Positions 17,923-39,987 are shown, counted from the first letter of the stretch. The stretch: DNA of 64,000 bases from an uncultured Pseudomonadales bacterium (GCA_964509365.1 CAZDWN010000001.1:80143-144142); one strand, 5' to 3'. Made by a program: numbers and translations. Notes: a model not told the origin generated them from the letters alone.

Positions 17923-19008
17923 TTATTTGCCTAGAGTCACTACTATTGAAGTGGCTTTTGCGCTCTCACTAGCCGTAAAGGTCAGATCTTTGAGTGTGGA
18001 CTTTATCTCGGGGATCAGCGCTTTGTAGGCAGCTGGATACGAGATCGTGCCAGCAAGATCAGCATTTCCATTGCCGACTGTTCCCGTTGTAAAGCCAGCG
18101 GCTTTCAGGAGCGCCGCTTCTTTCGTCGCAAGGCCAGAAATCTTGGTCCCATTGAGGACATCGACTTTGACTTTCTTTTTGAGAAGCGCACTTTCTGATG
18201 CATTCAGGGTCGCACTTTCACTAGCGACTGGAGCTGTCGTACTCACTGGCGTCGGACGCGGTGTCGCGACGACTTCTGGAGTCGGAGTCGGGACACTGGT
18301 CGGACTAAAGAGATTGCGAGCGTAGAGGAAGAGCCCGCCGATCGCGAGGATGAGGACCGCGAGCACCATGAGGATGATACCAATCAGTTTCTTGTTATTC
18401 CCGCCCTCACTGGCGGCTTCATTGATCTCACCGACCACTGCTTGTGGTGCGACAGCTGAGGCATCCGCAAACATGTTTGGAGCTCCTTGCGGGATGCCAG
18501 GTTGCAACGGTTGAGTCTGCATCTGTTGCACTGGTTGGTTCATCCCATTTTTCAAATCATGTTCAAAAAATGATGGGAGTGTCGGCTCGGCGCTCATTCC
18601 CGCTGCTACAGGAGCTTGAGGTTGCATGACTGGAGCAACTTCCGGTTGAGGGGCGAGCACAAAAGGAGCGATATTCGAGACTTCCGGAGCTGCTTGCACT
18701 TGCGGCTGTATCGGCATCACTGGAGCCATTTGTGGCTGCGGCTCACTGACTGGCTGCTGCGACTGCCAGACTCTTTGGACTATCGGTTGCTGCGGTTCCG
18801 GAGCGTGCGGCGTTGGAGTCTCGGGTACTGGGGCTGTATACGAAGGAGGAGTTGGGGTAGGCATTTCTGGTTCCACATTTTCTATCTCGACGACCACCGG
18901 ACGACGAGCTGGTTGCAGTGACGGAGTCTCTGTTTGGTCCTCATCGAAGACATTGACGATAGGGACATTGTGTTTGGTGGTGTGTTTTGTGACAGGCTTG
19001 GGACTCAT
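17923..19008 (-). CDS. LytR_C-domain membrane protein with a Pro-rich linker
   Basis: C terminus KVDVLNGTKISGLATKEAALLKAAGF..YPAAY resembles the LytR C-terminal domain; the ORF track extends to 19179 but the Met at 19008 avoids overlap with the plus-strand gene. Confidence 0.5.
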   Translation of the reverse strand: MSPKPVTKHTTKHNVPIVNVFDEDQTETPSLQPARRPVVVEIENVEPEMPTPTPPSYTAPVPETPTPHAPEPQQPIVQRVWQSQQPVSEPQPQMAPVMPIQPQVQAAPEVSNIAPFVLAPQPEVAPVMQPQAPVAAGMSAEPTLPSFFEHDLKNGMNQPVQQMQTQPLQPGIPQGAPNMFADASAVAPQAVVGEINEAASEGGNNKKLIGIILMVLAVLILAIGGLFLYARNLFSPTSVPTPTPEVVATPRPTPVSTTAPVASESATLNASESALLKKKVKVDVLNGTKISGLATKEAALLKAAGFTTGTVGNGNADLAGTISYPAAYKALIPEIKSTLKDLTFTASESAKATSIVVTLGK

Positions 19009-19072
19009 AGTGTTTAGCGTAGCGCAAAGCGAAAGTGAGAGCAAGTCCAAAATGTTGTATGCTTGATCCACT

Positions 19073-19861
19073 ATGAAATATCTTCTCGTGGTGCTGGTTC
19101 TTTTTGGGTTGGTCGCTACTGCGATCGGGATCGTCGTCTCGCGTCGCCCACAGTCTGTTACCTCCCAAGCAGCTCCCACTCAAAATACCTTGGGAATGCT
19201 GATCAATGACTGCAATTATTTAATGCTGTCCAGATGCTTTTTCATCGAAGAAAAAGCACACATGAATATTTTCGTTCCGACACAGGCGCAAAAGACCGTG
19301 AGAGAGCATGCTTCTCCTACTTTTGCAAACTATAGTGAGTCGGTCGACCCACAAGTCTTCCTTCAACTCGGACAACCGATCGATCTCGGGTTACAACCAA
19401 GGTATACGACGAGTGAGATACTTGCTAGAGTCTCGCTGTCATCACAAATTAGCTATCGACTCCTCGCGGCTATTATGGTGATCCAAGGAAATGACGTGTG
19501 GAATGGAGACAAGCCAGCCGCAAACCCGCTCAATCGAAGTGAGTTATCGTTTGCCTCACAGCTGAGCGGCCTCGCTTCAGATTTACGAAAAGAGATTCAG
19601 GCTCAAAGTGAGATCCCCTCACCAACCGTGCGAAAAGATGACAAGGTCTATACGTTTGCGCCGGATACAACATCAGCTTCACGAGCCTTGACCATCTATT
19701 TTGCGAAGACACTTTCTGCCGAAGAATTTGAAGCGGTTGTCTTACCGACTTCCACTGCCAAAAACGCATTCCGAAATGTGTGGCTTGAGCTCTATGGTTC
19801 GCCTTCCATCCAAGAGATTCATGATCCCTCAGGGAGCGACCTCCCTCCAGGTATACGTTGA
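19073..19861 (+). CDS. membrane-anchored protein, partner paralog A
   Basis: N-terminal TM; the conserved block ILARVSLSSQISYRLLAAIM..NPLNRSELSFASQ aligns with ILSRISLSSDIDNRLLVALF..NPLSRKESSFSGQ of 25487-26296; its 3' end overlaps the giant gene by 33 nt. Confidence 0.55.
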   Translation: MKYLLVVLVLFGLVATAIGIVVSRRPQSVTSQAAPTQNTLGMLINDCNYLMLSRCFFIEEKAHMNIFVPTQAQKTVREHASPTFANYSESVDPQVFLQLGQPIDLGLQPRYTTSEILARVSLSSQISYRLLAAIMVIQGNDVWNGDKPAANPLNRSELSFASQLSGLASDLRKEIQAQSEIPSPTVRKDDKVYTFAPDTTSASRALTIYFAKTLSAEEFEAVVLPTSTAKNAFRNVWLELYGSPSIQEIHDPSGSDLPPGIR

Positions 19862-22800
19862 TGACTTCATTTTTTCCGGAGCGCTCTGGATGAGATCTGG
19901 TCGGTAGATAAAGAGACTTGCTGGTCCTTTATTATTCTCCGCTCCGTTGTTTCCATTCTTGAAGTCTCGTGGGAGATCGATCCCTCGCTTGGCTGCAAAG
20001 GTCCCTTCCCCTATAAACTTTAGATCCGTCCCGGCTGCACCAGTTGAAGCAACCGTGAGTGTCTGATCGGTAAAGTACATTCCTTGCACTTGACCGTCAG
20101 TCGTTTGCGAGTACGTTGAGGTCCCGACCGTATCGGAGATCGTGATCGTACCTTTGACAATGAAGGCGACGAATCCGCCTTTGGCAAGCTTGATGTCTTT
20201 ATTGATGGTGAGATTGCCTCCGACGAAGACGACGACCTTGTCTCCACTCGCGACATTCCAAACCGTATCGACAGTGAGGTTTCCTGATTGATAATAAAAT
20301 GATTTGCAGCTCGCGCCAGCGCATGGCTTCGTTGCGTTGTTTGGAGTACTAAAATCAGTTCCGCCGCTGACACCCACACTAAACTGTCGATAGAACGAGT
20401 CATAACTTTCTTTGAGCGCTGGCGAATTTGCGACACTGATAAGATGTGATGGAGCTGCAGAGACATTGCCAGTACCTCCAGCACTGTTGAGCTTGGAGAC
20501 AGGAGCAGCACTATCGACCAACAGCGATCCTGCAGTCTCTGGTCTACTGCCAGTGAGTGGCAGCGATAGATTTGGATCGCAGCCCGTAACTCCACAGAGT
20601 TGGACTGGGATCGGATCATTGACTGCGCGAGTCGTTGTGCTCAAAGCGGCGATATCCCCGCCAATTGTTTGGAACCAATGTTCCGCAACTGGGCTGGTGT
20701 AGAAGACTATATTTGGGTTCACTGGGACGGTTCGCGCTGGATACGTACAATTGAGTGGACAGGTGCAAAAATCAGTTGAGCCGACTGGTAGGTTGAGCTT
20801 GATGTCATACCCGCTATCATTTGGGATATTGGAGACCGAGAAACCACCACTGCCATTGACTGCACCAGAGAATGACAATGCTCCTTTGCTGACACTGACC
20901 GTACCCCCATTGGTATATACGGATGTCCCACTCGCCGAGCATCCTGGCCCGACGATCTTCCCCGTTCCACCTGGATCGGAGAGCACGGTTGACGCATAGG
21001 TCGACGTACAGACATCAAGTCGGAACAAATTTGATTGGGCGGCCGCTGAGTCTGGGGTACACAGACCGAGTGAGCTATGTGCACTGACGATGGCACGATA
21101 GCTTCGCCCAGGTGCTAGACTCGTCGTCACTGTACATGTCCCCGAGGCACATGGACGCGCTGCACGAGGGATGACGACCGCTCCCGTACTATCCACGACT
21201 TGGAAAAAATATTGATTCGCATTTGGGACAGCGGCCCATGTCCAGTCGACGTTTTGATTGCAAGTCGGACACGGCGCACACGTCGATGGAGCCGGATCTT
21301 GCGGCGTCGGACGCGTACACGCGACTGGAGGCGGCGCAGTATAGGTCACCGTTCGTGTGATGGAGACTGGAGTACCGGCACTATTCACACAGCGCAATGT
21401 ATATGAAGTTGTCGTACTGACACCAGCGATATTGAGAGTCCCCACCGTTGTCTTCGCTCCGGTCCAACCGCCACTTGCGGTACAGCTGGTCGCATTGGTT
21501 GCGGACCACGTCGCTTTGACAGTTGTCGGTGCACTGATACTCGCTGGAGTAACCGTAAACGTGAGGGTTGGCGCTGGGATGACGACTGCACTGAGATTCA
21601 CTGTGACGGTATCTGAGCCGCTACCCCCAGGTCCGGTACACGTGAGCACATACGTTTTTGCTGCGGTAATATTCGTCTGGACGAGGCTGCCGTTCGTCGC
21701 TCGTGCACCCGTCCATGATCCGCTCGAAGTACATGTAGTCGCATTGGTCGTTGTCCACGTGAGTGTGGTACTCCCTGCCGAAGGGACTGTGGCGGGACTG
21801 GCAGTCAATGTCACACTTGGAGCGGTACTGGCGGAAGTCGTGACGGTGACGGAGTCAGTTGATGTCCCACCGGTGCCCGTACATGAGAGGACAAATGTCT
21901 TTGCCGCATTGATTCCGGTGACCGTCAATGTCCCCGAAGTCAATCGCGCTCCTGTCCATCCATTACTGGAGGTACACGTCGTCGCATTGGTCGCCGTCCA
22001 TGTCAGCTTAGTACTACCACCGACCGGGACACTCGTCGGAGCTGCAGTGAGATTGACGACAGGAAGTGGTGGAAGTGATGCGACGTTGACGTTAACCGTC
22101 TTCGAGATTGTGCCACCAGGTCCAGTACACGTGAGTGTATACACATCGTTACTAGAGATTCCATTTTCCGCTTGGGTACCGTTCACGGCTTTCGCGCCTA
22201 TCCAATCACCAGATGCTGTACATGACGTCGTATTGGTGGAAGACCAAGTGAGTGTCGAGTTTCCATTGAGTGGGACCGTCGTCGGGGATGCAGTGAATGT
22301 CAGCGTCGGAGCTGCTGGAGGCGGTGCGGAAAATGTGACTGTGTCTGATGCCGTCGCCGAACCCGTCGCATTTGTACAGGTGATCGTGTACGTCGTGGTT
22401 GTGGCGACACCGGCGATGGTCGTGGTGCCAGAAGTGAGTTTTGTCCCTGTCCAGCCGCCGGTCGCTGTACAACTCGTCGCATTGGTCGAAGACCAACTCA
22501 CCGTGACGGTACTACTGCTACTGATCGTGGCAGGGGTCGCAGTGACCGAGACAGTCGGAGCGGGCGCCACCGGCTTAATCGTCGTAAATGTGAGAATCGT
22601 GTACGCACTGACGCACCCTGCTAAACTGGGATGGAACGTCAAGATAAATAATCGATAATTCGTATTTGGTTTGATAGTGAGCGGCCATCCGCGGGGATTT
22701 TGATACATGATCTCCCCACCAGTGACTTGTTGATTAAACTCATAAGTCCCAGTCGTCATATTGCGAAGTGTGAGTTGATACGCAGTCGCGACGTTGCCGC

Positions 22801-23560
22801 CCGGAGCCGAAAAGAATGGATAGTACGTACCAGGAGTGATGACCGCTCCGTCAGCCATCCCAGCCGGGATAGACCATCGCCACACCGGTGCGCCTGGTGG
22901 GCCACTATTTCCACAGACATTGTTGGTGCAGTTGGCATACTGAAAACTGCCGATGCCCTGCCAGTTTGGTGGGTTACATTGAATACAGACATAGGGAGGA
23001 CCATTTACACCACTCGCATTGCACGTGTCCCCTGCATATCCCATACCACAGTTTGGACTGTAGTTCCCGCAGATTGGAGCTCCGACCCCACCGCCAAAAC
23101 CGCAGCACATTTCGCCGCTCGCACAGCTCCCAGAAGCAGGTTGCCTACCGACTTGGCCACAATTACTCAGGCCTCCAAAGCATGCTCCAGTACACGAGCC
23201 GCCTGTCCCTCCACCACCACTCGTCGGAGTCGGTGTGGGTGCGACGACCGTACAAGTGCCAGGCTGAGATCCGGTGTTCAGATTGCAAGCACCAGTGGAT
23301 AAAATATTACAACTTGAGCTAGTCGTGAAGTATTCACACGTCGTCCCATTGAGTGTGCCTGATACTGAGCGGCAATTTGTGCCTGGAGTACACACAGCAA
23401 TCTGTTTTCCAGTGATTGGGTCAAAGTTACTTGAGCATGCACCATTTGATGAACACACATTGTTACATGTACAACTCGCTGCGAAGGCACTAGTCAAAGT
23501 TCCGAGATACAGGACGAATGAGAATACTCCGATGACGAGCCACTGAAAGTTTTTTTTCAT
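19829..23560 (-). CDS. giant secreted Cys-rich surface protein, paralog A (1243 aa)
   Basis: signal peptide, Cys-rich N-domain shared with paralog C, five tandem Ig-like repeats, and a conserved C-terminal module and tail ...GPASLFIYRPDLIQSAPEK..YTWREVAP. Confidence 0.75.
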   Translation of the reverse strand: MKKNFQWLVIGVFSFVLYLGTLTSAFAASCTCNNVCSSNGACSSNFDPITGKQIAVCTPGTNCRSVSGTLNGTTCEYFTTSSSCNILSTGACNLNTGSQPGTCTVVAPTPTPTSGGGGTGGSCTGACFGGLSNCGQVGRQPASGSCASGEMCCGFGGGVGAPICGNYSPNCGMGYAGDTCNASGVNGPPYVCIQCNPPNWQGIGSFQYANCTNNVCGNSGPPGAPVWRWSIPAGMADGAVITPGTYYPFFSAPGGNVATAYQLTLRNMTTGTYEFNQQVTGGEIMYQNPRGWPLTIKPNTNYRLFILTFHPSLAGCVSAYTILTFTTIKPVAPAPTVSVTATPATISSSSTVTVSWSSTNATSCTATGGWTGTKLTSGTTTIAGVATTTTYTITCTNATGSATASDTVTFSAPPPAAPTLTFTASPTTVPLNGNSTLTWSSTNTTSCTASGDWIGAKAVNGTQAENGISSNDVYTLTCTGPGGTISKTVNVNVASLPPLPVVNLTAAPTSVPVGGSTKLTWTATNATTCTSSNGWTGARLTSGTLTVTGINAAKTFVLSCTGTGGTSTDSVTVTTSASTAPSVTLTASPATVPSAGSTTLTWTTTNATTCTSSGSWTGARATNGSLVQTNITAAKTYVLTCTGPGGSGSDTVTVNLSAVVIPAPTLTFTVTPASISAPTTVKATWSATNATSCTASGGWTGAKTTVGTLNIAGVSTTTSYTLRCVNSAGTPVSITRTVTYTAPPPVACTRPTPQDPAPSTCAPCPTCNQNVDWTWAAVPNANQYFFQVVDSTGAVVIPRAARPCASGTCTVTTSLAPGRSYRAIVSAHSSLGLCTPDSAAAQSNLFRLDVCTSTYASTVLSDPGGTGKIVGPGCSASGTSVYTNGGTVSVSKGALSFSGAVNGSGGFSVSNIPNDSGYDIKLNLPVGSTDFCTCPLNCTYPARTVPVNPNIVFYTSPVAEHWFQTIGGDIAALSTTTRAVNDPIPVQLCGVTGCDPNLSLPLTGSRPETAGSLLVDSAAPVSKLNSAGGTGNVSAAPSHLISVANSPALKESYDSFYRQFSVGVSGGTDFSTPNNATKPCAGASCKSFYYQSGNLTVDTVWNVASGDKVVVFVGGNLTINKDIKLAKGGFVAFIVKGTITISDTVGTSTYSQTTDGQVQGMYFTDQTLTVASTGAAGTDLKFIGEGTFAAKRGIDLPRDFKNGNNGAENNKGPASLFIYRPDLIQSAPEKMKSSTYTWREVAP
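21326..22558 (-). repeat. five tandem ~83-aa (~250-nt) coding repeats inside paralog A
   Basis: each unit carries ...S(V/L)T(A/F)(T/S)P...TL(T/S)W(S/T)(S/T)TNAT(S/T)CTA(S/T)G.WTG(A/T)K...Y(T/V)L(T/S)C(T/V); residues ~335-745. Confidence 0.6.
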
Positions 23561-24150
23561 AGGATCATGCGCTCGATAGATTTGATTTCGATATCTTCGC
23601 TCGGATGCTCCGCAAGTTTTTGAGTGAGGACCGTAAAGTCTGTTTGGCTCATCTGTATATACAGGATAACATGATCATGCTGAGTGAGGAGAGAATCAAC
23701 ATCTGCAAATGGGACGACCTGCCAGATTTGTGAGGATTCAATTTTGCCATTGGTAGGATGGTAGACGAGGATGCCGGTTGGACTATCTGGAAGCACGTAG
23801 ACATTTGAATTGAATTGAGTGCCGTTGAATGTAGTAGAGACTCGAAGGAATTTCCCTTCGCCGAGATCACCAATTTTCTTGTCTGCTGCTGTCCCTGAGA
23901 TGATCAATTCTTTAGAACCTTCGTCGTAAGAGAGTTCAGCGTCGACATCTTTGCCAGTACGCGCCTCTTTGATCGTCGTGTATCTACTTGGCAGAGTGGG
24001 TGCAGACGAGACGATCTTTGATACCAACGGTACGGTATCAAATTTTGAGATGAGGACTGTTTTGTTCGCACCAATGAAGTACGCGACTCCTATAAAAAGT
24101 ATGAAACTGACGATGAGACCTATGAAAATGCGTGAGCGAGCCATGCTCAC
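23557..24150 (-). CDS. hypothetical N-terminally TM-anchored protein
   Basis: 197 aa with an N-terminal hydrophobic helix; overlaps the giant gene start by 4 nt. Confidence 0.45.
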   Translation of the reverse strand: MSMARSRIFIGLIVSFILFIGVAYFIGANKTVLISKFDTVPLVSKIVSSAPTLPSRYTTIKEARTGKDVDAELSYDEGSKELIISGTAADKKIGDLGEGKFLRVSTTFNGTQFNSNVYVLPDSPTGILVYHPTNGKIESSQIWQVVPFADVDSLLTQHDHVILYIQMSQTDFTVLTQKLAEHPSEDIEIKSIERMIL

Positions 24151-24183
24151 TTCATCATAGTGGCAAGAAAATAAAATTACAAG

Positions 24184-25287
24184 TTAGTTGCCAATGGATC
24201 TCGTCGCAAAATATGAGGAGTTACCAAACTCAAGTTCCTCACCATCTTTCGGATACTTTCCATTCACCAAGTCTTTAAACAGTTTTGCCTGATTTGCATA
24301 TGCATCATGGTATGCAATGACGACATCACAAAATTCTGTGCATTTGCTCGCATCTAAGACTGTGTCCTTACCGGATGGGTTGCGCTGAGGCAACGCGATC
24401 ACTATCTGACGCGAATCTATTTTGGCCTGAAACTCATCCCAATCCATGAATCGAGCACCGTTGGCACCATTTTGCGTTACCGCGTACGATTTTACCTTAT
24501 TACCGTTATCCAATGGGTACACCAAGTTATTAAATACAATATTTACCTTCACTCCATCTTTCGGTTCATACACAAAGTGAATTCGCTCGACAGATGCTGA
24601 AAGATCTTTTTGTAGTGCCTCACTATAGAACGTGGTTTCGACCACCTCAGTTTTTACGATTCTTCCCCCGATCGCCCAACCTGGATGGTACGGTTCCTTC
24701 CCTGGGAGGATTCTCACTTTCAGATCATTACTTTGAAACTTTGTGCCTTCGATATTGAGCTCGTACGGTTTTCCAGGGTCAATAGCGACTGCATCTAATG
24801 CTGCCAATGTTGGGTCTTTAACTTCTTTGACTGTCGAAGGTTTTGCAGGTTTTACGGTGAGATCCTCTTTTGTGTATAAAATGTATCGATCAGTACTGTC
24901 GCTGACACGAAAGAGTACCTTGCCGTTGTCAGAGACGCCTTCCCATGTGACCACGGAAATCGTCGCAGTATCAGCTATCTTAAATCTGTTTTTCATGTCG
25001 CTGATGACGTCTGCGAGATCGCCAAAATTCTCTGCGGGGGTAAATATGGGGAGCACTTCATTGCCCTTGAGGACGATCGCCATGGCGATTTCTTGCTGTT
25101 GTACTGGCGTTGGCTCTGGTTCCTGCAGAACTAATTCAATTGATTTGTCATTGATAGGCTTTGTCTCACCACGGTCTTGGTTTGCCAAGACGCTGCCTTG
25201 GAAAAGAAACGCTGCAACAGCGATGACGGCAGGTCTTTCAACCTTCTGAATCATTTCTTCTATTTGTTTTCGTAGTTCAGCAGACAT
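24184..25287 (-). CDS. hypothetical secreted protein
   Basis: 367 aa with an N-terminal hydrophobic segment; no recognised motif. Confidence 0.45.
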   Translation of the reverse strand: MSAELRKQIEEMIQKVERPAVIAVAAFLFQGSVLANQDRGETKPINDKSIELVLQEPEPTPVQQQEIAMAIVLKGNEVLPIFTPAENFGDLADVISDMKNRFKIADTATISVVTWEGVSDNGKVLFRVSDSTDRYILYTKEDLTVKPAKPSTVKEVKDPTLAALDAVAIDPGKPYELNIEGTKFQSNDLKVRILPGKEPYHPGWAIGGRIVKTEVVETTFYSEALQKDLSASVERIHFVYEPKDGVKVNIVFNNLVYPLDNGNKVKSYAVTQNGANGARFMDWDEFQAKIDSRQIVIALPQRNPSGKDTVLDASKCTEFCDVVIAYHDAYANQAKLFKDLVNGKYPKDGEELEFGNSSYFATRSIGN

Positions 25288-25326
25288 ATTTACCTTATAG
25301 CTTTTACTATGAGTCCGACTCGTGGT

Positions 25327-25354
25327 AAAAAAAGAACCGCCTGAGCGGTTTTAT
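25327..25354. terminator. conserved hairpin aaccgc-ctga-gcggtt flanked by A7 and a T-run
   Basis: about 42 nt upstream of the 25287 start; near-copy of the hairpin at 31261-31285. Confidence 0.45.
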
Positions 25355-25486
25355 GCACAATCCAGACTTCTTCGGGTTTCCCTCTCGAGGAAAATGCGAT
25401 ACAGAAGTGAGAAAAGTCTCATTAAATAGTAAGTATATACCATAGGTTGGCACTCGTCAATTGCTATAGGCCATGGCTGAGCTTAC

Positions 25487-26296
25487 TTGCGTAGAGTCGT
25501 CTTTCTCTTGTATGCTGGAGCTAGTATGAAGTCGATCGTGGCAGTTGCCGTCCTGTTTGGTGTCCTATCCCTAGGCATCGGTACCTATTTTGTCTCCACC
25601 GGGCGTGCCCCTCAAATGATCTCTCGGGCTGCACCGGAGACGAGTGTGCTCTCAAATCTGATTGACGACTGCGACTTTATCGCCCTCCCAAACTGCAGCG
25701 ATCGCACTTCCGGGAAATCGCTTGCAGTCTTTATCACGGAAGAGACTGAACAATTGATTCGAGACAATGCGCCGAAATCAGTCGTGGATTATCGAGAGAC
25801 CGTCTCGCCCGACTTGTTCAATGACCTAGGCAACCCTATCGTTCTGCCGACCAAACAAGTCTATTCAGTCGGAGATATCTTATCGAGAATCTCGTTGTCG
25901 TCAGACATTGACAATCGTTTACTCGTCGCTCTGTTTATGTCGCAAGGGTCAAAGGCCTGGGATGGTCAATCGAGTCTTTCTAATCCACTCAGTCGCAAGG
26001 AATCCTCATTTTCTGGCCAATTTGCGCAAGCAGCGATAGAGCTTCGCGATGGCTTTCACTCGCAGCTCGAATTTCCCACCAATTCAGTGACCAACGGCAC
26101 CACAAATTATCCATTTGATTCTGGATATGTGAGTACATCCTCGCGCGCATTGTATGCATATTTGGCCCGCACGAGTTCGCAAGCGGACTTTAAACGAATT
26201 GTTTCTCTGTCACAAGCGGAGCCAACATCATTTCGCGCGGTGTGGAAATTGATCCATCCAGTCGCTCCAAAAAAAGTAATTGAGAATTTGTATTAA
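25487..26296 (+). CDS. membrane-anchored protein, partner paralog B
   Basis: paralog of 19073-19861; its 3' end overlaps giant paralog B by 4 nt. Confidence 0.55.
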   Translation: MRRVVFLLYAGASMKSIVAVAVLFGVLSLGIGTYFVSTGRAPQMISRAAPETSVLSNLIDDCDFIALPNCSDRTSGKSLAVFITEETEQLIRDNAPKSVVDYRETVSPDLFNDLGNPIVLPTKQVYSVGDILSRISLSSDIDNRLLVALFMSQGSKAWDGQSSLSNPLSRKESSFSGQFAQAAIELRDGFHSQLEFPTNSVTNGTTNYPFDSGYVSTSSRALYAYLARTSSQADFKRIVSLSQAEPTSFRAVWKLIHPVAPKKVIENLY

Positions 26297-28800
26297 GGGT
26301 TCACTTCTTTCCAAATGTACGACGGGGTTTTCAGTTTGTCTGGAGCGTTTTGGATCAGGTCAGGTCTATAGATAAAGAGACTTGCTGGCCCTTTGTTGTT
26401 TTCGACGCCGTTGTTCCCATAGCGAAAATCTCGTGGCAAGCTGATACCAGATCGAGCTGCAAACGTCCCTTCTCCGATGAACTTCTTTTCGCTGCCTGCG
26501 ATCGTGGAAGTCGCCACTGTGAGTGTGCCATCAGCAAAGTACATGCCCTGCACTTGTCCTCCACTTGTCTGCGCCGAGAATGGCAAGGTTGCGGTACCGA
26601 CATCTTTACTGATGGAGATATTTCCCTTGACGATAAAGCCGATGAATCCACCTTTCGTCAACGTGATTGAATTATTGATGATCAAATTTCCTTTGACGAA
26701 CACGACGATTTTGTCTGCCGCGCCGACATTCCATGGAGTGTTGATCGTGAGGTCAGTATCCTGATAATAAAAATCTTTGCAGGTTGCGCCGCCACATGGT
26801 TTCGTTGCATTGCTCCCAGCCCCGAAATCATTCCCAAGACTTAGGCCCACACTAAACAATCGATAGAAATAGTCGTAACTATCTTTGATCAGTGGATTTG
26901 TGCCCACTTTGATGAGGCGTGAAGGACTGCCGACATTACTATCTTGCGATCCTGACGGATTACTCTTTAAGTCAGCATTTGCACCAGAGTTGATGAGCAG
27001 CGCGCCAAGACTATTTGCATTCCCAGAGGTCAGTCGCGTAGAGAGATTCGGATCGCAGCCGGTGATCGCGCAGAATTCTGTCGGGATTGGATCGTCGACT
27101 GCATTTCCGGACGGTGCCAACGCGGCGATGTCACCACCGACCGTTTGATACCAACTATTTGCGACAGGACTCAAGTAAAATTTGAGTGCAGGGCTCAGCG
27201 GCACCGTTTTAGAAGAGTATGTGCAACCGGCGGGACACGTGCAGTAGTAATTACTCAGTGGTGAAAGCGTGATGTCATAGTTGGCGTTCATGTTTGGCAC
27301 GTTGTTGATCGTCGCCGTACTTCCACTGACACTCCCATAGTACGTGAGTCCATTGGAGATTCCTTTGGCTTGGATCGCACCGCCACCGGAAAATGCCCTG
27401 CCTGTGCTTGGTGATGTACACTGCTCAGTCGAACCACTTCCAGTTCGGCTCGGCGCTGTCCCATTCGTCAATTGCGGATCTTCTTCGAGCGTCATCGTCA
27501 CATTGCTGGAACATGTACTCAATGTATAGTCCTGCGATCGACCGACCGTTGACGCCGGTGTACATGCCCCTGACGTGCTACTGGCCGTCACCAGTGAATG
27601 ATAGGTACCTGGCAAGAGTTGCAGATCGATATGGCATGTACCGCCTGCCGGACAACCCATTTGCGTTCCCGTTTGTGTAATTGGGGCGATGACGACATTA
27701 TCATTTTGATCTCGTATTTCGACGGTGTATCGATTTGCAAATGGGATCGCGAGCCAATTCCAACGAATGGTGGTCAGAGTTGTCGGTGTGGCTGCGCAGA
27801 CTCCCGACGCCGGATCGAGCGGTACTGGAGTGATACACTGGACCGGCGGTAACGGTCTTGGATTCGCCTGGATTTGCATGTACTGGTCGGGGCCTTTGAC
27901 GAGATACCCTGGACACGTAGTAAACCCATTCACTTTGAATTGAACAATTCCCGGAGACGTCGCTTTAAATCCGCACACCCAGTAGTGAGGAGAGGTCGCG
28001 TTGTAATAGACGTAGCCGCCTGAATAACAGGATACGGGCGTCGTATTCCCGGTCAGCGCCTGAAATGAGAAAGCGCTCGTACACGTGTCGTTGATAGGAT
28101 AGGCGACGGTGTAGAACCCATCGCCGACGAAGACGCTACTTTTTGCTGCAGCCGGTTGCGCAGCTGCATAGCTGTCCACCACATACAGTGAGAGTGATGC
28201 AGGTGGAGGATTGTTACTCCCCTGTCCGCATCCAGATGGATCCCACACACATGCACCACTCGGATTTGTGCGACACTGTGTCTGATTGGTGCCTGGGCAG
28301 CCACTACAACCGCCACAGGCTCCATACCCACTACTGCCATTTCCAGGTCCGCTGCCGCCACTACTTCCATTCACCCAGCAGCCGTAGGTGAGGTTTTGAG
28401 CACTCTCCATACAAGTTGAGTTCGAGCTTCCACCCCCGGAACACGTGGTGATCGACCCATTAAACTGACAACTCGGAGCTCCCGAGCAACCCACTGTCTG
28501 CGATCCCGTTGTCGCACACCAAGGTGGACCTGAGAGTGAGAAGTTATCACAGACTTGAATACACGATCCTTGTGCCGGACCACAATCACTTGGAACTTTT
28601 CCCAATGTACACGCGGTCAATGAATACGAACACTTTGAGCTGTATTGTGTGCAGACAGATGGTCCGCTGGTACATGCATATTGGTTGATGATACGAGATG
28701 GAGCGCAAGTCTGGGCATGGACTTTGCTCGTCTGTGACTGGATCGCAAAAAAGAAGACCGTGAGGGTCAGAATTCGTGCAATGTGCAAGACTTGCTTCAT
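26293..28800 (-). CDS. giant secreted Cys-rich surface protein, paralog B (835 aa)
   Basis: signal peptide, Cys/Gly/Ser-rich N-region, and a C-terminal ~400-aa module and tail GPASLFIYRPDLIQNAPDK..YIWKEVNP shared with A and C. Confidence 0.75.
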   Translation of the reverse strand: MKQVLHIARILTLTVFFFAIQSQTSKVHAQTCAPSRIINQYACTSGPSVCTQYSSKCSYSLTACTLGKVPSDCGPAQGSCIQVCDNFSLSGPPWCATTGSQTVGCSGAPSCQFNGSITTCSGGGSSNSTCMESAQNLTYGCWVNGSSGGSGPGNGSSGYGACGGCSGCPGTNQTQCRTNPSGACVWDPSGCGQGSNNPPPASLSLYVVDSYAAAQPAAAKSSVFVGDGFYTVAYPINDTCTSAFSFQALTGNTTPVSCYSGGYVYYNATSPHYWVCGFKATSPGIVQFKVNGFTTCPGYLVKGPDQYMQIQANPRPLPPVQCITPVPLDPASGVCAATPTTLTTIRWNWLAIPFANRYTVEIRDQNDNVVIAPITQTGTQMGCPAGGTCHIDLQLLPGTYHSLVTASSTSGACTPASTVGRSQDYTLSTCSSNVTMTLEEDPQLTNGTAPSRTGSGSTEQCTSPSTGRAFSGGGAIQAKGISNGLTYYGSVSGSTATINNVPNMNANYDITLSPLSNYYCTCPAGCTYSSKTVPLSPALKFYLSPVANSWYQTVGGDIAALAPSGNAVDDPIPTEFCAITGCDPNLSTRLTSGNANSLGALLINSGANADLKSNPSGSQDSNVGSPSRLIKVGTNPLIKDSYDYFYRLFSVGLSLGNDFGAGSNATKPCGGATCKDFYYQDTDLTINTPWNVGAADKIVVFVKGNLIINNSITLTKGGFIGFIVKGNISISKDVGTATLPFSAQTSGGQVQGMYFADGTLTVATSTIAGSEKKFIGEGTFAARSGISLPRDFRYGNNGVENNKGPASLFIYRPDLIQNAPDKLKTPSYIWKEVNP

Positions 28801-29363
28801 AGCGTTGCGACCATTTGTGGCTGAATACTATAGGTGTTTGGAGTGATTTCTTTGGCTTGGAGGAGCGCCTCCATTGGCGGCACGAGGCTTTTGACAGCGT
28901 CGGCATCCGTCTTCGTGACGACGACTCGGACCTCGATCGACGTTCCTGTTTTGAGTGACGATAAGATCTCCGATACTTTTTGCATCTTCCAAGGCAATTG
29001 ACCTTTCGTATCGAGATCAGCAAAATTGATTTGTGACACACCTTGAGCGAGCATGACACGAACAGGAATTTTCTTCTCATCGCCTTCGATCGCTATATCC
29101 ATCGCATACAGGCCAGAGTAGTCTTTTGGAGCCGTGAGGATCGTCCCTCTCACTGTATAAATCGTTTGATCATTACTTGGTTCGTTTTTGCGGACAAAAT
29201 ATTTTGGATTGCGAGTCTCTTGTATTGTCGGCGTTTGCTCGGTACTGACAGCCACAAATTCCTTTTTCGCCGCACTCCCACTTCGGCGTGTCGCCCAAAA
29301 AACGAGTCCAGCAAGGAGTGTGAAAAAAATGACGAGGACAATGAGGACAGAATACGATTTCAT
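28797..29363 (-). CDS. hypothetical N-terminally TM-anchored protein
   Basis: 188 aa; overlaps the giant gene start by 4 nt, the same layout as 23557-24150. Confidence 0.45.
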   Translation of the reverse strand: MKSYSVLIVLVIFFTLLAGLVFWATRRSGSAAKKEFVAVSTEQTPTIQETRNPKYFVRKNEPSNDQTIYTVRGTILTAPKDYSGLYAMDIAIEGDEKKIPVRVMLAQGVSQINFADLDTKGQLPWKMQKVSEILSSLKTGTSIEVRVVVTKTDADAVKSLVPPMEALLQAKEITPNTYSIQPQMVATL

Positions 29364-29414
29364 GCTACTTTCTAGAGTAGCTGTATCTGATCAGTATTTC
29401 AAGCAGTTATGGAA

Positions 29415-30812
29415 TTATTGTGGGAACACAATGAATGAGGCCGGATAATAGATGCCAGGCTGCATTTGACCTTGTAAGGTGCCGAATCGAACATCAACAT
29501 CGTAATTATTTGCAGGAAATGTACCTGCCGCCGTATTCTTAGCAAGATCTTGAGCAATCGCGATATACGCTGCTCTTACATCTGGGCTGTACCCTATATT
29601 GTTAGCCACCAATTTAATCTGCAATTTTGCACCATTCGGCAGATCTCGCAGTTGTTTCAATATTTCACTCATGTCCAAACTAAGAGGAGCTTTGTCCCCA
29701 ATTGCTAGATCCATTCGTCCTTGCGAAGCAATCGGTATGAGCGCCGCAAAAACTGTATCATTGCCGCCCACCCATTGAACCAGACAGAATGAATATTTTT
29801 CTGTACCGTACATGACCTCGTGTTGCGTACAGTCTGCTAAGGCAACTGTGAGCATCGTTGGTTCTCCGGTCTCAGCATCGATGGAGAATCCGGTTGGACC
29901 AATTTTTTTTACTTCTTCGAGCGACAACATACTTGTAGGTACAAATTTATTGTCGATCAACTCCTGTAGCAATGGAGTGGCAGCTTTCCAGACTGAGGAA
30001 AGGACAATTCCTTCAAATCCTGGAATCTTTAATTCTTTCGTGCTTGATCCGGTCTCCGCAACTGCGGCATTTGTTTCGATAATAAGTTGTAGTCTCTCTC
30101 CACTAAGACCCTTCTGCGCTACCCACTTCCCACTCACTAGCTTGTACCATGTAAGATCGCCATCCGTAAGGGTTTCACCGGTAAAATATTCTTTTGTTCC
30201 AGTGACAAATTTGGTCGCAGGAAAGTTGACCCCTGGACCAGTTCGCAAGTTCGCGCCTTCGACAATATTGATTTGTGCTTTGAAAATAGAAAATTTTGCT
30301 TCCGCAGCGGTGTGAAAAGTTTTGGACTTTTGAGATGCATCTATAGCTTTGAAATTGAGTACGACGTACTCTGGAGTGCCGCCCACGCTGACTTCAAGCA
30401 ATACCACGTCACCCATGTTGACGTCAGGAGAATCCCAGCTTAGTGTATTGACGAGTGAGTCTGGCGTCAGATCCATGACTTTTGCAAGTTGCGAAAGTAT
30501 TTCAGGGGATGCAGGGACGCGAGTGACTGGGATTTCAGCTCCATTGACGGTGAGCGCTAGAGCGATATCGGTCCCGAGTGGATCTTCACCAGTGGATTGT
30601 TCAATATCACGCGGGATGTGCTGCGCCCAAAGATCTGAAGTGACGATCGTACTGTCGCCTTCATTTTTCCCAGAATTACTTTCTACAGTTTTGGAGTTTG
30701 CGGAGATTTCTCCGGCGTTTGCAGCGACGATGAGGCCCATTGCACCCGCGGCGAGTACAGCTTTATTCTTTAGAGTTCTCAAGAAATTTTTCTTTGGTTC
30801 CATCTCTCCCAT
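29415..30812 (-). CDS. secreted protein with an SH3b-like domain
   Basis: signal-like N terminus; GANLRTGPGVNFPATKFVTG...DLTWYKLVSGKWVAQKG resembles bacterial SH3. Confidence 0.5.
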   Translation of the reverse strand: MGEMEPKKNFLRTLKNKAVLAAGAMGLIVAANAGEISANSKTVESNSGKNEGDSTIVTSDLWAQHIPRDIEQSTGEDPLGTDIALALTVNGAEIPVTRVPASPEILSQLAKVMDLTPDSLVNTLSWDSPDVNMGDVVLLEVSVGGTPEYVVLNFKAIDASQKSKTFHTAAEAKFSIFKAQINIVEGANLRTGPGVNFPATKFVTGTKEYFTGETLTDGDLTWYKLVSGKWVAQKGLSGERLQLIIETNAAVAETGSSTKELKIPGFEGIVLSSVWKAATPLLQELIDNKFVPTSMLSLEEVKKIGPTGFSIDAETGEPTMLTVALADCTQHEVMYGTEKYSFCLVQWVGGNDTVFAALIPIASQGRMDLAIGDKAPLSLDMSEILKQLRDLPNGAKLQIKLVANNIGYSPDVRAAYIAIAQDLAKNTAAGTFPANNYDVDVRFGTLQGQMQPGIYYPASFIVFPQ

Positions 30813-30849
30813 ACTACCTTATCTTTCAGGTTGTCTCATGAGTCAAATC

Positions 30850-31218
30850 TCATTCTCGCTTAAAGCAACCAATCTCAACCAACTCACCAAACTGATTTGG
30901 GAACTCCCCAATCACGGTGACTTTTGCTCCGTTTGGACCTTGCTCAGACGGCGGTTCCAGTTGAAAAGTGTGAGGGTTGATAAACGTAGAATCATGAAGA
31001 TTGAGAACTGCGTCGCACTGAGCGATAAGCGAATCAAGATCAGCAGGTTGAGCTGGAATTGGTTCACCGGTTGGCGACTCAGAACGCACTGCTAAAATTG
31101 CTCCAACGGAGATCAAGACTATAGCTGCGGCAGTTTTTAGTCGATCAATGATCTTTGGATCAATTGGCGATTCAGGTGTTCCAAATCCTACGGTTTCTTT
31201 AGTCTTTTGTGTTGCCAT
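30850..31218 (-). CDS. hypothetical protein with one hydrophobic segment
   Basis: 122-aa ORF preceded by the conserved hairpin. Confidence 0.4.
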   Translation of the reverse strand: MATQKTKETVGFGTPESPIDPKIIDRLKTAAAIVLISVGAILAVRSESPTGEPIPAQPADLDSLIAQCDAVLNLHDSTFINPHTFQLEPPSEQGPNGAKVTVIGEFPNQFGELVEIGCFKRE

Positions 31219-31260
31219 ATGTATAACTCATAGCGATTTACTATAAGTTTTGTAGTAAGT

Positions 31261-31285
31261 AAAAAAATGACCGCCTAGGCGGTCT
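31261..31285 (-). terminator. intrinsic terminator gaccgcc-tag-ggcggtc with a T7 run on the minus strand
   Basis: perfect 7-bp stem 150 nt past the paralog C stop; sequence relative of the hairpin at 25327-25354. Confidence 0.55.
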
Positions 31286-31430
31286 GAACAATTTGCAATG
31301 CGCTCTCGAGGAGATTGACATCTTCCCTCAGTGGAACGAACTCTCTTTGCTTCATTAAATACAAAGTATATACCTCTTTGTCAAGGAACGCAATATACTA
31401 TGGGACTTACAGATAAGTTTGAGGTGTACA

Positions 31431-33869
31431 TCAAGGAGAGACTTCTCGCCAATTATAGGAAGATGTGCGCATCCGAGGAGGAGCATTCTTGACGAAGTCA
31501 GGTCGGTAGATAAACAACGCTCCAGGGAATGTGTTGTTGTCCAAGCCTACGTCCGCCCTGGCATAGTCTCGATCGATCTTGATGCCACCACAGGCAGCAT
31601 ATGTCCCTTCCGCTACGAGTTTCTTCTCTTCAGTCACTCCCCCTCCCAAGACTTTGATGCTGTTATTGGCGATAAAGACTCCTTGGACTTGCCCAGGGCC
31701 AGTACTACTATGGTTACTTGTCCCCACATTTGCTCCGATCTGTATATCTCCAGAGACGATGAATGCGAGGAAGGCGTCTGTCGGGACGGTGATGTTTGCA
31801 TTGACGTGAAGATCGCCATTGACAAAGACGACGATCGTATCCCCACTCTGGACATTCCAATCACTAGCGATCGTCAATGGGAGCGCGCCACTGTAATAGT
31901 ATGCAGACTTTCCATTGCTTGGCGAGCTGCCTTTGGCAGGCATCACTGCATTCGCTGGATTTTGGAAATCAGAGCTTGGATTGATACCCATACTATAGAG
32001 ACGATAAAAGTAAAGGTAGTTTTCGTTGCACTGGAGAGCGTTCGTGAGTTTCACCGAGTGGTCATCCGGTGATGCAGCGATAGTACCTGACAGGAAATTG
32101 ACGACTGAGCGCGCCATCGTGATCAAGGCTCCAATCGAGTTTTTACTGATTCCCAGTGGCAGTGAGAGAAATGGATGACAGTACGGCTCGACGCAGCCAG
32201 CTGGGATAGTGTCACCCAGTGCGACTCCCCCATCCACTTGAGCGGCGACATCGCCACCCATTGTTTGATACCAAGCTTTCCCGATCGGCGTGACATAAAA
32301 TTTGAGGTCTTCGGTCGTTGGAGCACTTTTTTGGTGATACTCACATCCTGCTGGACAGCTACAGGTATAGTTTGGATCCGACGGAGTGAATTTAACGGTA
32401 TACGTGCCATCTGCTTGCGGGAGACTCGAAATTGTATATGTGCCATCTCCTTTTATCGAACCACGATATGGGGCCGCGACGCCATTCAGTGCTTCCACCG
32501 ACCCAAAGGTAAATGCGTCACCAGTATCGGGGGAGCTACAGTACTTTGACAAAAATCCTATTGCAGTTGGCTTTGTCCCGCCTTTGAGAGACGGATCCGT
32601 CTCTACATGCGAGGTAATCGATGCGAGAGGTGTGGCAGTCGGTTTTGGCGTTGGTGTCGGCGTAGGGACTGCGGTAGGCGTAGCTGTGGGTTTTGCAGTC
32701 GGAGTGGCCGTCGGCCTCACAGTTGGTGACGCACTCGGATTTGCAGTGGGAGTCGGTGTGGGTACAGTGCCATTGCACGCAGCTTGATTCAACTCGATCA
32801 CATAGCCAATAGATTTTCCGCCACAGAAGAGATCAAGTTGCCACTTGCTACAGATTGGTCCCATGCCAAGCACGATACTCGCGCCTGGCGCCAGTGTTTG
32901 CGTCCCATTAGAGTCCGCCAGTTTATCCCATCGATCCAAGAGCCAATCAAACGTCGCAGGTGTAGTTGAGATATTTTTGACGATGAATTTATCTGTAGTG
33001 TTCCACATGATCGGATCTGGATACGGATTCGTGGTCAGTTGACTGAGGCTACAATTTGCTACGGGTGCAGGAGTTGGACTCGGTGTCGGCGTCGCTACTT
33101 TAGTCGTGAAGTTGAGAGTCAGTACAGAGCTCGTACAGGCGGAGCCAGATGACTGAGCTGTTGCAATTCGCATGGTGTAATCAGTATTGGCTTTGTAGGT
33201 ATATGGCCAGCCACGAGGATTTTGGTACATGATCTCGCCACCAGTCACTTGCGCATTAAACTCATATGAGCCTGGGACGCCCACACTGTGATCGTCGATA
33301 TTGAGATAATAGATCGTAGCGACAGTGCCGCCTGGAGCGCTAAAGAATGGATAGTATTGTCCTGGAGCTATCACTGCTCCATTGGCGATGCCGGCAGGGA
33401 TCGACCAGCGCCAGACTGGAGTCCCAGGTGCACCCAGGGTACCACAGACGTTATTCGTGCAGTTTGGATATTGGAAACTCCCCATTCCTTGCCAAGTGTT
33501 GGTGCTTGCCATGCATTGAATACACACATATGGAGGTCCTGCATTTCCACTCGCATTGCATACTGCTCCCGGAGTCGCTGGACCACAGTTTGGGTTGTAG
33601 TTACCGCACAGTGGTCCTGTATACCCACTACTACACGCATTACCGACAGGATGATCTGCTGGACACGTACGGCAAGAAGGATCAGTGCCGCAATCATCAC
33701 CTTGATTTTTCCAGTAGATATCGTTACTACAGGCGTTACATTTGGTTGGATCATTCCCAGGACTTTCGCAGCAGGTACGGCCGGCAAATGCGTGCGGAGC
33801 TTTGACAAACGAGATCATTCCAAACAGGATAAAAAAAAGTGCGAGTGAACGGATCCGAGCGACAGACAT
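31431..33869 (-). CDS. giant secreted Cys-rich surface protein, paralog C (812 aa)
   Basis: signal peptide; N-domain CGNYNPNCG...PPYVCIQC...VWRWSIPAG..YYPFFSAPGG nearly identical to A; Pro/Thr-rich linker; C-terminal module and tail PGALFIYRPDFVKNAPPR..YNWREVSP. Confidence 0.75.
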   Translation of the reverse strand: MSVARIRSLALFFILFGMISFVKAPHAFAGRTCCESPGNDPTKCNACSNDIYWKNQGDDCGTDPSCRTCPADHPVGNACSSGYTGPLCGNYNPNCGPATPGAVCNASGNAGPPYVCIQCMASTNTWQGMGSFQYPNCTNNVCGTLGAPGTPVWRWSIPAGIANGAVIAPGQYYPFFSAPGGTVATIYYLNIDDHSVGVPGSYEFNAQVTGGEIMYQNPRGWPYTYKANTDYTMRIATAQSSGSACTSSVLTLNFTTKVATPTPSPTPAPVANCSLSQLTTNPYPDPIMWNTTDKFIVKNISTTPATFDWLLDRWDKLADSNGTQTLAPGASIVLGMGPICSKWQLDLFCGGKSIGYVIELNQAACNGTVPTPTPTANPSASPTVRPTATPTAKPTATPTAVPTPTPTPKPTATPLASITSHVETDPSLKGGTKPTAIGFLSKYCSSPDTGDAFTFGSVEALNGVAAPYRGSIKGDGTYTISSLPQADGTYTVKFTPSDPNYTCSCPAGCEYHQKSAPTTEDLKFYVTPIGKAWYQTMGGDVAAQVDGGVALGDTIPAGCVEPYCHPFLSLPLGISKNSIGALITMARSVVNFLSGTIAASPDDHSVKLTNALQCNENYLYFYRLYSMGINPSSDFQNPANAVMPAKGSSPSNGKSAYYYSGALPLTIASDWNVQSGDTIVVFVNGDLHVNANITVPTDAFLAFIVSGDIQIGANVGTSNHSSTGPGQVQGVFIANNSIKVLGGGVTEEKKLVAEGTYAACGGIKIDRDYARADVGLDNNTFPGALFIYRPDFVKNAPPRMRTSSYNWREVSP

Positions 33870-38829: not shown

Positions 38830-39987
38830 TTAGACTGATTGGGTCTGCTTCAGTTCGTCATGCAGGACAGCCTGGAGTTCGTCGTGAGTGATGATTTTTA
38901 CAAGTTTTTGCGATTTCTCATGGAGGGCGCGATATCGCGGTTCGAGATCCTCATCTGACTCCCCATCCACTTTATTGAGGATTCCGTCGATAAACTTGGG
39001 TACAAGCGTGAGAGTCTGAGTCGAGAGTTTTGCTTTTTTTTCGCTCTTTTCGCGCTCTGCTTTCAATATCTCCTCCCCCAGCTTCACTCCAGCTTGAGTG
39101 CGAAATTCTTTTAACGTAGGATATTTTTGCAAAAATTCGAGCAACCAGGCAGTACGACCACTCTCGCCAATGACCACCATGTCTCTATTTTGAATAAAAT
39201 TACGCTCTACTTCCTCGACGGTAATTCCTCCGCCATTATAGACCGCGGCCATACTTCTGGCCTTTTCACCACGAGACTTCTGTTGTAATGCCTCGGCAAC
39301 TTTAAAGAATACTTCAGTTTCGTCTCCAAAGTTGTCTCCTTCGACGAGAACTGAGTGTGTATGGTTGGGCTCGATCACTTCCATATCAGCAGGCTTCTTG
39401 TCCTTCTCGCCTTTCCATACTTGTGCAGATGGTGAGATACCGACGAGCGCTACGTCGATTTTTTCTTTGAGGAGTTGCTCTCGGACTTTTCCAGCAATTT
39501 GGATGATTCCTGAATCAGTACCACCGGTGACCATCACCGGGCGCTTTCCTTCTTGTACTACTTCCTTCAGTTGAGAGCAGAAAGCGTCCACCAGTTTTTG
39601 CTGTTCACCACCCTCGGACTTATCCATGAAGCCAGCACCCCCGTTGAACAGGAGTACAAAGTCAAACGGCGACGCTTGGGTTTGCGTATCGTAGAGTTTG
39701 AGATCTGCGAGCATCTTCTGGACAGCCGATGTATCAGCATTCTTGGGAATCTCTGCGGTCTGTAAACCTGCTTTATCAAGATTAACGACAGGCACTTCGA
39801 CCATCGCAGTACCAGGCTTCTCTTGTGTTTCTTCTACTGCCATCTCTCGCTTCACGGTGGTGGGCCATTCTCCTCGTATCCTGGCCATATTGATGTTATC
39901 TTCCGCACGTAGCGGATTCATCTTTCCATTCATGCTTTCTTTCATAGTGGTTACCCACTCGGTGATCTTATCCATATGTGCCTCCAA
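38830..39987 (-). CDS. Rossmann-fold LOG/SLOG-like protein with N- and C-terminal extensions
   Basis: VMVTGGTDSGIIQIAG and AAVYNGGGITVEEVE resemble the LOG-family glycine motifs; weak assignment. Confidence 0.35.
   Translation of the reverse strand: MEAHMDKITEWVTTMKESMNGKMNPLRAEDNINMARIRGEWPTTVKREMAVEETQEKPGTAMVEVPVVNLDKAGLQTAEIPKNADTSAVQKMLADLKLYDTQTQASPFDFVLLFNGGAGFMDKSEGGEQQKLVDAFCSQLKEVVQEGKRPVMVTGGTDSGIIQIAGKVREQLLKEKIDVALVGISPSAQVWKGEKDKKPADMEVIEPNHTHSVLVEGDNFGDETEVFFKVAEALQQKSRGEKARSMAAVYNGGGITVEEVERNFIQNRDMVVIGESGRTAWLLEFLQKYPTLKEFRTQAGVKLGEEILKAEREKSEKKAKLSTQTLTLVPKFIDGILNKVDGESDEDLEPRYRALHEKSQKLVKIITHDELQAVLHDELKQTQSV

Follow-up and report, generated by a model that had tools for sequence, protein, structure and literature searches.

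Specialised peptidoglycan-lytic enzymes are encoded with envelope-spanning machines, as exemplified by FlgJ of flagella, EtgA/IpgF of type III secretion systems, VirB1/PrgK of type IV secretion systems (T4SS) and PleA of the pili and flagella in Caulobacter. To our knowledge, no dedicated wall enzyme has been established for monoderm-type type IV pili. To locate host cells and stay attached to them, Patescibacteria depend on surface appendages, above all on type IV pili; most of the proteins involved are unannotated. Here, we describe two neighbouring gene pairs in a 64,000-nucleotide (nt) stretch of DNA (GCA_964509365.1, CAZDWN010000001.1:80143-144142), hereafter the window, in whose coordinates positions are given unless another locus is named. 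In each pair the gene for a small, predicted membrane-anchored protein, the partner, lies tail to tail with the gene for a large, predicted secreted protein, the giant, on the opposite strand. The best overall explanation, to which we give an even chance of being right, is that the partner interacts with the wall as a probably non-catalytic accessory to an adhesin module linked to pili, and that the window derives from the genome of an ultrasmall bacterium of the Patescibacteria (Microgenomates/Woesebacteria-like).

Nearly all Patescibacteria have type IV pili, through which they bind their hosts (PMC11623550). The solenoid of the competence pilin ComZ, a protein argued to occupy the pilus tip, is most like an ice-binding protein (PMC6561018).

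Results

Partner and giant genes

Three giants of 1243, 835 and 812 amino acids (aa), large more than giant, and two partners are encoded in the window:

Partner A: 19073-19861, plus strand; 262 aa; N-terminal membrane helix, linker, Cys47-Cys55 subdomain and predicted lysozyme-like (GH73-type) domain
Giant A: 19829-23560, minus strand; 1243 aa; signal peptide, Cys-rich head in common with giant C, at least five Ig-like repeats of ~82 aa, C-terminal module of ~410 aa, predicted beta-solenoid core
Partner B: 25526-26296, plus strand; 256 aa; paralog of partner A; 4-nt overlap with the giant B stop codon
Giant B: 26293-28800, minus strand; 835 aa; signal peptide, a different Cys-rich head; C-terminal ~520 aa 49% identical to giant A
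Giant C: 31431-33869, minus strand; 812 aa; C-terminal module as in giants A and B; no partner; in relatives this gene, beside RseP (M50) and RRF, is the fixed left flank of the cassette site

The two partners are 35% identical over 241 aa (BLASTP, E 9e-50), which is far beyond chance. A first-pass annotation of this DNA had proposed their paralogy, had quoted core motifs shared between them and had given each an N-terminal transmembrane (TM) helix; the motifs are found in both translations, the helix is reproduced in the structural model described below, and all three statements were borne out. The span proposed for partner B (25487-26296) holds the right gene with another start. Position 25487 is a TTG that opens the longest open reading frame (ORF), and the ATG at 25526 is preferred because homologues without exception start with MK... 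and because the gene called publicly on an identical sequence is the 256-aa ATG form. Throughout the window a profile of the partner family matched two ORFs, partners A and B only, in agreement with the earlier statement that giant C at 31431 has no partner. Two ORFs considered as a third partner near giant C (30349-31095 and 31419-32072) were rejected as antisense artefacts without similarity.

Searches of Pfam, NCBIfam and PDB sequences gave no meaningful match for the partners or for the giants. A word-indexed homologue search with partner A returned partner A alone, and a first genome scan with a two-sequence partner profile gave no match; the C-terminal module of the giants then served as the genome-scan probe in place of that profile. 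The partner family comprises 18 representatives (50% clustering, among 1.84 billion proteins) of ~250-310 aa each, and its range is limited to a small clade of Patescibacteria. Both partners and all 18 representatives have an N-terminal hydrophobic helix, from which we infer a bitopic, membrane-anchored envelope protein; a conserved small-x-Ala motif some 10 residues past the helix could be a signal-peptidase site and is a caveat to the membrane anchoring. Residues C47, C55, E89, Q163, Y193, S203, F219 and E220 are conserved, and the C-terminal tail is unconserved and varies in length across the family.

Conserved adjacency and joint replacement

A partner gene is adjacent to a giant gene and convergent on it at 12 places, namely window A, window B, L001, L002, L004, L005, L007, L008, L017, L023, L025 and the contig carrying P0010, where the partners are only 20-46% identical. 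The stop-to-stop distances, in the same order, are -33, -4, +5, +4, +158, +158, +200, +50, +11, +159, +22 and +20 nt; L003 and L024 were too short for adjacency to be judged. The tail-to-tail overlaps first annotated in the window, in which the last 33 nt of partner A overlap the 3' end of giant A and partner B and giant B share 4 nt in palindromic TTAA stop codons, are exact in ORF coordinates. The argument built on them, that an overlap maintained through duplication suggests coupling, is not supported: because of the gaps of 4-200 nt at the ten other places, and of 3.1 kb in L006, there is no evidence for the overlap as a selected feature. Partner-giant adjacency is conserved and the 3' overlap is not, the latter being probably incidental and of no special significance. 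It may have originated in a compact genome where the variable, unconstrained C-terminal tail of the partner runs into the conserved end of the giant. Functional coupling of partner and giant finds its support instead in the convergent adjacency at 12 places and in the joint replacement of the two genes. Partner homologues standing apart from giants were also looked for, and all those with enough flanking sequence have a giant-family gene or an X-Y operon (genes introduced below) within ~4 kb.

The joint replacement is visible between L001 (738-1175) and L017 (1-440), which are 94.5% identical at the DNA level through the 5' end of the neighbouring LytR_C gene and the intergenic region. This identity ends 6 nt inside the partner ORF, past which only 20% identity is left between the partner proteins and 52% between the giant C-termini. 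When the window is compared with L002 or L008, LytR_C is 67-69%, the partners 38-39% and the conserved ends of the giants 50-54% identical, and DNA similarity ceases within the TM-coding segment of the partner. Partner and giant thus belong to a single block that evolves fast and can be replaced. Its left edge is abrupt, and between L001 and L017 it falls at the start codon of the partner as a recombination or replacement boundary. The earlier dismissal of a shufflon-type inversion holds. The partner genes are complete, with starts and homologues of their own, there is no recombinase among the annotated window neighbours, and no inverted repeats frame the genes; the single 21-nt inverted pair in 17.5-34 kb lies inside giants A and C, 9.5 kb apart.

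Fold and putative active site of the partner

The AlphaFold2 model of the partner, made from an 18-sequence alignment, has a predicted local distance difference test (pLDDT) score of 88.2 and a predicted template modelling (pTM) score of 0.79. After a helix at residues 2-23 and a disordered linker (25-34) comes a domain that is mostly helical and has a single beta-hairpin at 185-195. A lysozyme-like alpha+beta fold with a substrate groove is present in the model, with a core of ~135 residues, and as modelled this fold is closest to the GH73 glucosaminidases. The top five Foldseek matches in the PDB are all GH73, at E-values of at least 0.38 that are non-significant, and hhalign against a GH73 comparison profile of E. 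coli FlgJ (NC_000913) plus relatives gave a likewise non-significant E of 0.06-0.19 (probability 0.9% at E 0.06). The GH73 profile PF01832 matched neither partner A nor partner B at the curated threshold, nor any of the 18 members at E <= 10, and the SLT profile did not match the partner family.

In the hhalign alignment, partner residues 119-137 (helix RVSLSSQISYRLLAAIMV) fall on the GH73 active-site helix ASQQSGVPHHLILAQAAL, which continues into ESGWG, and this register places Q138 on the catalytic Glu of ALESGWG. A relaxed, Trp-anchored alignment places N140 on the catalytic Glu and NPLNR on NLFGVK. Each of the two columns is acidic in at most 2 of the 18 members; the same site reads QGSK in partner B and IG or QQ in the distant branch. 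In neither register does the partner family conserve the catalytic Glu that stands at the C-terminus of the active-site helix (..ALESGWG..), and as far as these alignments go the partner is without a conserved catalytic acid. The ectodomain would probably bind the glycan strands of peptidoglycan without catalysis. A dedicated chaperone or anchor had been suggested as the role of the partner. The lysozyme-like, GH73-type fold points to the cell wall and away from a classical chaperone; the anchor is among the alternatives weighed in the Discussion.

Architecture of the giants

The C-terminal module of ~410 aa is common to giants A, B and C, and the tails end in a strongly conserved ...LFIYRPD..AP..MK...W.EV.P. 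The giants begin with ordinary signal peptides, with no pilin (class III signal) N-terminus as in ComZ, and none of them has an LPXTG, SLH or TM anchor. The model of the C-terminal module has an overall pLDDT of 58.5, with 70-90 in the solenoid core. The giants may thus end in a beta-solenoid of the ice-binding-protein/ComZ type, on a low-confidence model and with beta-helix matches that are promiscuous. No giant matched DUF3494, and DUF7305 was matched only below threshold (E 9e-4 to 0.058).

The heads vary, and one member of the giant family carries a VWA head. The window giants are mosaics: the Cys-rich N-terminal heads of A and C are 63% identical over 175 aa, and the last ~520 aa of A and B are 49% identical, a pattern that implies probable domain shuffling among the paralogs. 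At 21459-22510, giant A holds at least five diverged copies of the ~246-nt (82-aa) Ig-like repeat with 62-74% DNA identity; Tandem Repeats Finder reported nothing in 19-34 kb and left these repeats undetected.

The cassette and its copy number

The repeated unit is larger than the two-gene module first proposed. It is a cassette of ~6.47 kb made up of an intergenic element, two genes here called X and Y, the giant and the opposite-strand partner, and the direct-repeat spacing of the two window cassettes is 6464-6476 nt. The remaining parts and the neighbouring LytR_C gene are:

LytR_C-domain envelope protein: 17923-19008, minus strand; 361 aa from the ATG at 19008 (start placed from sequence and homologues); Pfam LytR_C E 4.6e-11; divergent from partner A
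Y_A: 23557-24150, minus strand; 197 aa, predicted small bitopic protein, translationally coupled upstream of giant A; weak similarity to the Y of L007 (E 0.009)
X_A: 24184-25287, minus strand; 367 aa, first gene of the cassette A operon; assigned only by the position of the SH3b-containing X in relatives, its sequence having diverged too far to be recognised
Intergenic element of cassette A: 25288-25525, no strand; copy of 31219-31430; minus-strand terminator hairpin 25350-25335; conserved motif 25419-25441; presumed promoters of X_A and partner B
Y_B: 28797-29363, minus strand; 188 aa, predicted small bitopic protein; E 6e-10 to the Y of L007
X_B: 29415-30812, minus strand; 465 aa; diverged SH3b-like segment; matches the SH3_3 segment of the L006 X (E 7e-5)
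Small membrane-protein ORF: 30850-31218, minus strand; 122 aa, first in the cassette B operon; its place is taken by a 146-aa gene in the P0010 contig
Intergenic element of cassette B: 31219-31430, no strand; giant C terminator 31284-31269 and conserved motifs; also conserved in L007

X_A and X_B, and likewise Y_A and Y_B, have no direct similarity by BLAST and are linked through intermediates in L007 and L006 and by position. A Y-sized gene occupies the Y position in L007, L018, L023, L025 and the P0010 contig. SH3_3 is part of the X protein of L007, L006, L012 and the P0010 contig; in L023 the match is weak. No counterpart of the 122-aa ORF at 30850-31218 was found in cassette A or L007.

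The window is collinear with L007, a contig of 504 kb from a related Patescibacteria genome, in which the order is RRF, RseP (M50), a giant of the C type, X (420 aa, SH3_3), Y (182 aa), a giant of the B type, the partner on the opposite strand, LytR_C, EndoIII and, further on, an M29 peptidase. The single-copy cassette locus is found also in the 834-kb contig carrying P0010, in L023 and partly in L025. In L009 the order is RRF, M50, giant of the C type and LytR_C, with zero cassettes between. The number of cassette copies between giant C and LytR_C is 0 in L009 (9653-12634), 1 in L007 (4572-13276), L023 and the P0010 contig, and 2 in the window (17923-33869). The two window cassettes retain DNA similarity only in the 3' ends of the giants (69%), and partner B is 46% identical to the L001 partner and 32% to partner A in the same comparison. 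Because of this limited similarity and the closeness of partner B to the L001 partner, the two cassettes are old or separately acquired.

The intergenic element is conserved across species with proteins only 30-45% identical. In its L007 copy (6228-6420) the motif TCATTAAATA..AAGTATATACC is present upstream of the X genes, as in the window copies. The hairpins are AACCGC-N4-GCGGTT followed by T7 (25350-25335) and GACCGC-N4-GCGGTC followed by T7 (31284-31269), with a compensatory A:T/G:C change at the base of the stem between the cassette A and B copies; past the hairpin, CT[CT]ATAGTAA is found ~20 nt ahead of the start codon. Rfam had no match in the window, the intergenic element included.

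In the LytR_C protein a long N-terminal stretch rich in Pro and Gln is followed by a TM helix, and the LytR_C domain is C-terminal. Its cytoplasmic Pro/Gln-rich region of ~200 aa opens with VPIVNVFDED...ARRPVVVEIEDV, which is strongly conserved in all orthologues seen.

Linkage to type IV pilus genes

In L010, L012, L013 and L018/L019 a giant homologue is followed by a directly overlapping pilin-like gene with an N_methyl motif, and these pilin/giant operons sit in complete type IV pilus clusters with several pilins, PilD, PilC, ATPases and PilMNO. The most distant partner-like genes, P0015 and P0018, are also within pilus clusters. The partner-like gene of L018 is divergent from X, and in L018/L019 it lies between the pilin/giant operon and pilMNO; that of L021/L022, co-directional with pilM-N-O, is one gene upstream of it, with 3-nt and 17-nt gaps. 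In distant relatives, then, the X-Y-giant operon with its pilin gene is placed in pilus clusters and the cassette genes are linked to the pilus, and by analogy a pilus association may hold in the window genome.

Two tandem nucleoside 2-deoxyribosyltransferase-like genes lie by the partner-like gene, between the X-Y-giant operon and pilMNO, in L021 (3582-4766) and L018 (10989-12147). Elsewhere in the window, genes of envelope or mobile type at 38830-39987, 40235-41563, 41789-42448 and 43396-45543 encode a prokaryotic SLOG/LSDAT protein, two SH3_3 wall-binding proteins (one also GW) and a VirD4/TraG-like coupling ATPase, the last with no other T4SS genes in view. A link between the VirD4-like gene (43396-45543) and the cassette was considered and rejected, the gene being 17 kb distant and the Patescibacteria T4SS literature offering no related component.

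Discussion

The paralogy, cassette structure, copy-number variation and synteny documented above suggest how the locus could work. The window holds two tandem cell-surface cassettes, each encoding an SH3b-type wall binder (X), a small bitopic protein (Y), a secreted adhesin with a variable head (the giant) and, on the opposite strand, the partner. The partner ectodomain would most likely engage wall glycan strands without cleavage, or with at most weak, local cutting, and could in this manner position, gate or retain the bulky adhesin and a pilus-associated assembly in the wall. Partner and giant would cooperate physically, and the X-Y-giant module would ancestrally belong to the type IV pilus apparatus.

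Several observations weigh against this explanation. The GH73 homology lacks significant sequence support, as seen from the hhalign and Foldseek E-values and from the missing Pfam match even at E 10, and the position equivalent to the catalytic Glu can be placed only to within two residues. Some members carry an acid close by, such as the D141 of partner A and the ESAW of P0004, and 89% of the family (16/18) have E89, so that the partner might be catalytic. The model of the giant C-terminus is poor overall, and structural matches to beta-helices are promiscuous. In L006 the partner stays beside LytR_C with the giant five ORFs (3.1 kb) away. Nor does the window contain a pilin or pilus gene; the pilus association is extended to it from relatives in which partner and giant are no more than ~20-40% identical.

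The partner could be an active specialised peptidoglycan hydrolase that, in the manner of FlgJ, EtgA, VirB1 or PleA, perforates the wall locally by means of a non-canonical or shifted catalytic residue, so that the giant or the pilus can be exported or assembled. Its nearest fold neighbours are active GH73 and machine-associated lytic enzymes, partner-like genes are found inside the pilus clusters of L018 and L021/L022, and besides E89 there are E220 and E157 in about 70-80% of members; several members have Asp or Glu at 140/141, and the ESAW of P0004 resembles the GH73 ESGW. Against these stand the absence of a conserved acid in either register, with QGSK in partner B and IG or QQ in the distant branch, and the failure of both the GH73 and SLT profiles to match, while E89 falls in the N-terminal add-on subdomain, outside the lysozyme-like core. 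We consider an active hydrolase unlikely.

The partner might alternatively serve as a dedicated protein-protein anchor or receptor for the C-terminal module of the giant, with the lysozyme fold as a mere scaffold that has no role in peptidoglycan binding. Such a function would suit giants that have no anchor of their own and yet a strongly conserved tail, and partners and giants that are swapped as one block between near-identical strains and both evolve much faster than the flanking genes. However, the same C-terminal module exists without a partner in giant C, in the second giant of L007 and L023 and in the giants of L009-L016, and the identities of partner and giant are poorly matched, the L017 giant being 55% identical to giant B where the partners are 20% identical. 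X, through SH3b, and Y, as a bitopic protein, are equally good candidates for the anchor, and a purely protein-binding partner is in our judgement rather unlikely.

Another possibility is that the partner and the divergently encoded LytR_C protein act together in general wall maintenance, adjacency to the giant reflecting a shared chromosomal hotspot only. The LytR_C gene is the divergent neighbour of the partner at 12 places, with 62-100 nt between the starts, and L006 has kept that arrangement with the giant at a distance. However, LytR_C does not neighbour partner B, which was duplicated along with the giant operon, nor the L005 partner, where the giant is present and MsrA replaces LytR_C, nor the pilus-cluster partners of L018 and L021/L022, which have X-Y-giant or pilMNO nearby, and in L009 LytR_C lies by giant C with no partner. 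LytR_C is moreover 61-69% identical where the partners are 34-39%, and the identity break falls at the partner start; the proposal appears very unlikely.

Selection for convergent transcription, by which overlapping 3' ends or read-through from the giant operon would exert antisense or interference control and make giant and partner expression reciprocal, is most improbable. In its favour, neither junction has a terminator-like hairpin, the first strong minus-strand terminator after giant B (25350-25335) lies past the entire partner B gene, and from RRF to LytR_C all genes run in one direction except the partner. Against it, ten other places have a gap of 4-200 nt where the window has an overlap, the pilus-cluster partners are divergent from X or co-directional with pilMNO and not convergent on the giant, and the terminator scan overall was at chance (18 found versus 16.2 expected).

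The reading of the partner as a non-catalytic wall-interacting accessory can be sharpened. Each cassette may encode a matched pair, in which a pilus-linked beta-solenoid adhesin is docked or gated through peptidoglycan by a catalytically dead, membrane-tethered, GH73-like "wall lectin"; the pair would co-diversify and be swappable, and its stacking in 0, 1 or 2 copies would tune host range or phage evasion in an episymbiont. In this full form the proposal is unlikely. If it is true, the partner would be a natural pseudo-lysozyme of the E-to-Q style, and monoderm-type type IV pilus/adhesin systems would have their first described factor dedicated to wall interaction.

Fold and context are offered here for four "hypothetical" families: the lysozyme-like partner, the SH3b protein, the small bitopic protein and the beta-solenoid adhesin with its putatively ComZ-related fold. 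The cassette evolves fast and varies in copy number at a fixed chromosomal site, and would be a useful metagenome marker for strain-level variation in host range. A gap in the understanding of how bulky surface structures cross or attach to the thick wall of these organisms would be filled if the partner binds glycan without catalysis and links the adhesin or pilus to the wall.

On the side of the giants, the nearest described systems include ComZ of Thermus thermophilus, a pilus-tip competence pilin with an inserted ice-binding-protein-like beta-solenoid. Unlike ComZ, the giants have no pilin domain; the pilin of the relatives is a separate gene downstream of the giant, and the window has no pilin gene. 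The ice-binding-type DUF3494 proteins may be like the giant module in fold and have no profile match to it. Tapirins of Caldicellulosiruptor are beta-helix adhesins from a type IV pilus locus, and their structural score against the giants is weak and beta-helix-generic, with no sequence similarity; we know of no lysozyme-like partner of tapirins.

On the side of the partner, the closest known fold is that of the GH73 N-acetylglucosaminidases (PF01832), among them FlgJ, LytB, AtlE and the membrane-anchored SagB of Staphylococcus aureus. The partner differs from these in being clade-restricted, without a profile match and without the conserved catalytic Glu, which machine-associated lytic enzymes of the FlgJ/EtgA/VirB1/PleA type retain. 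Beyond the GH73 plan it has a long helix inserted at 160-180 and, at the N-terminus, an additional subdomain in which a pair of Cys residues is conserved. The partner family is a new, previously unnamed one that becomes assignable by its modelled structure, and it appears as a variant of a known theme, that of lysozyme-fold accessories of surface machines.

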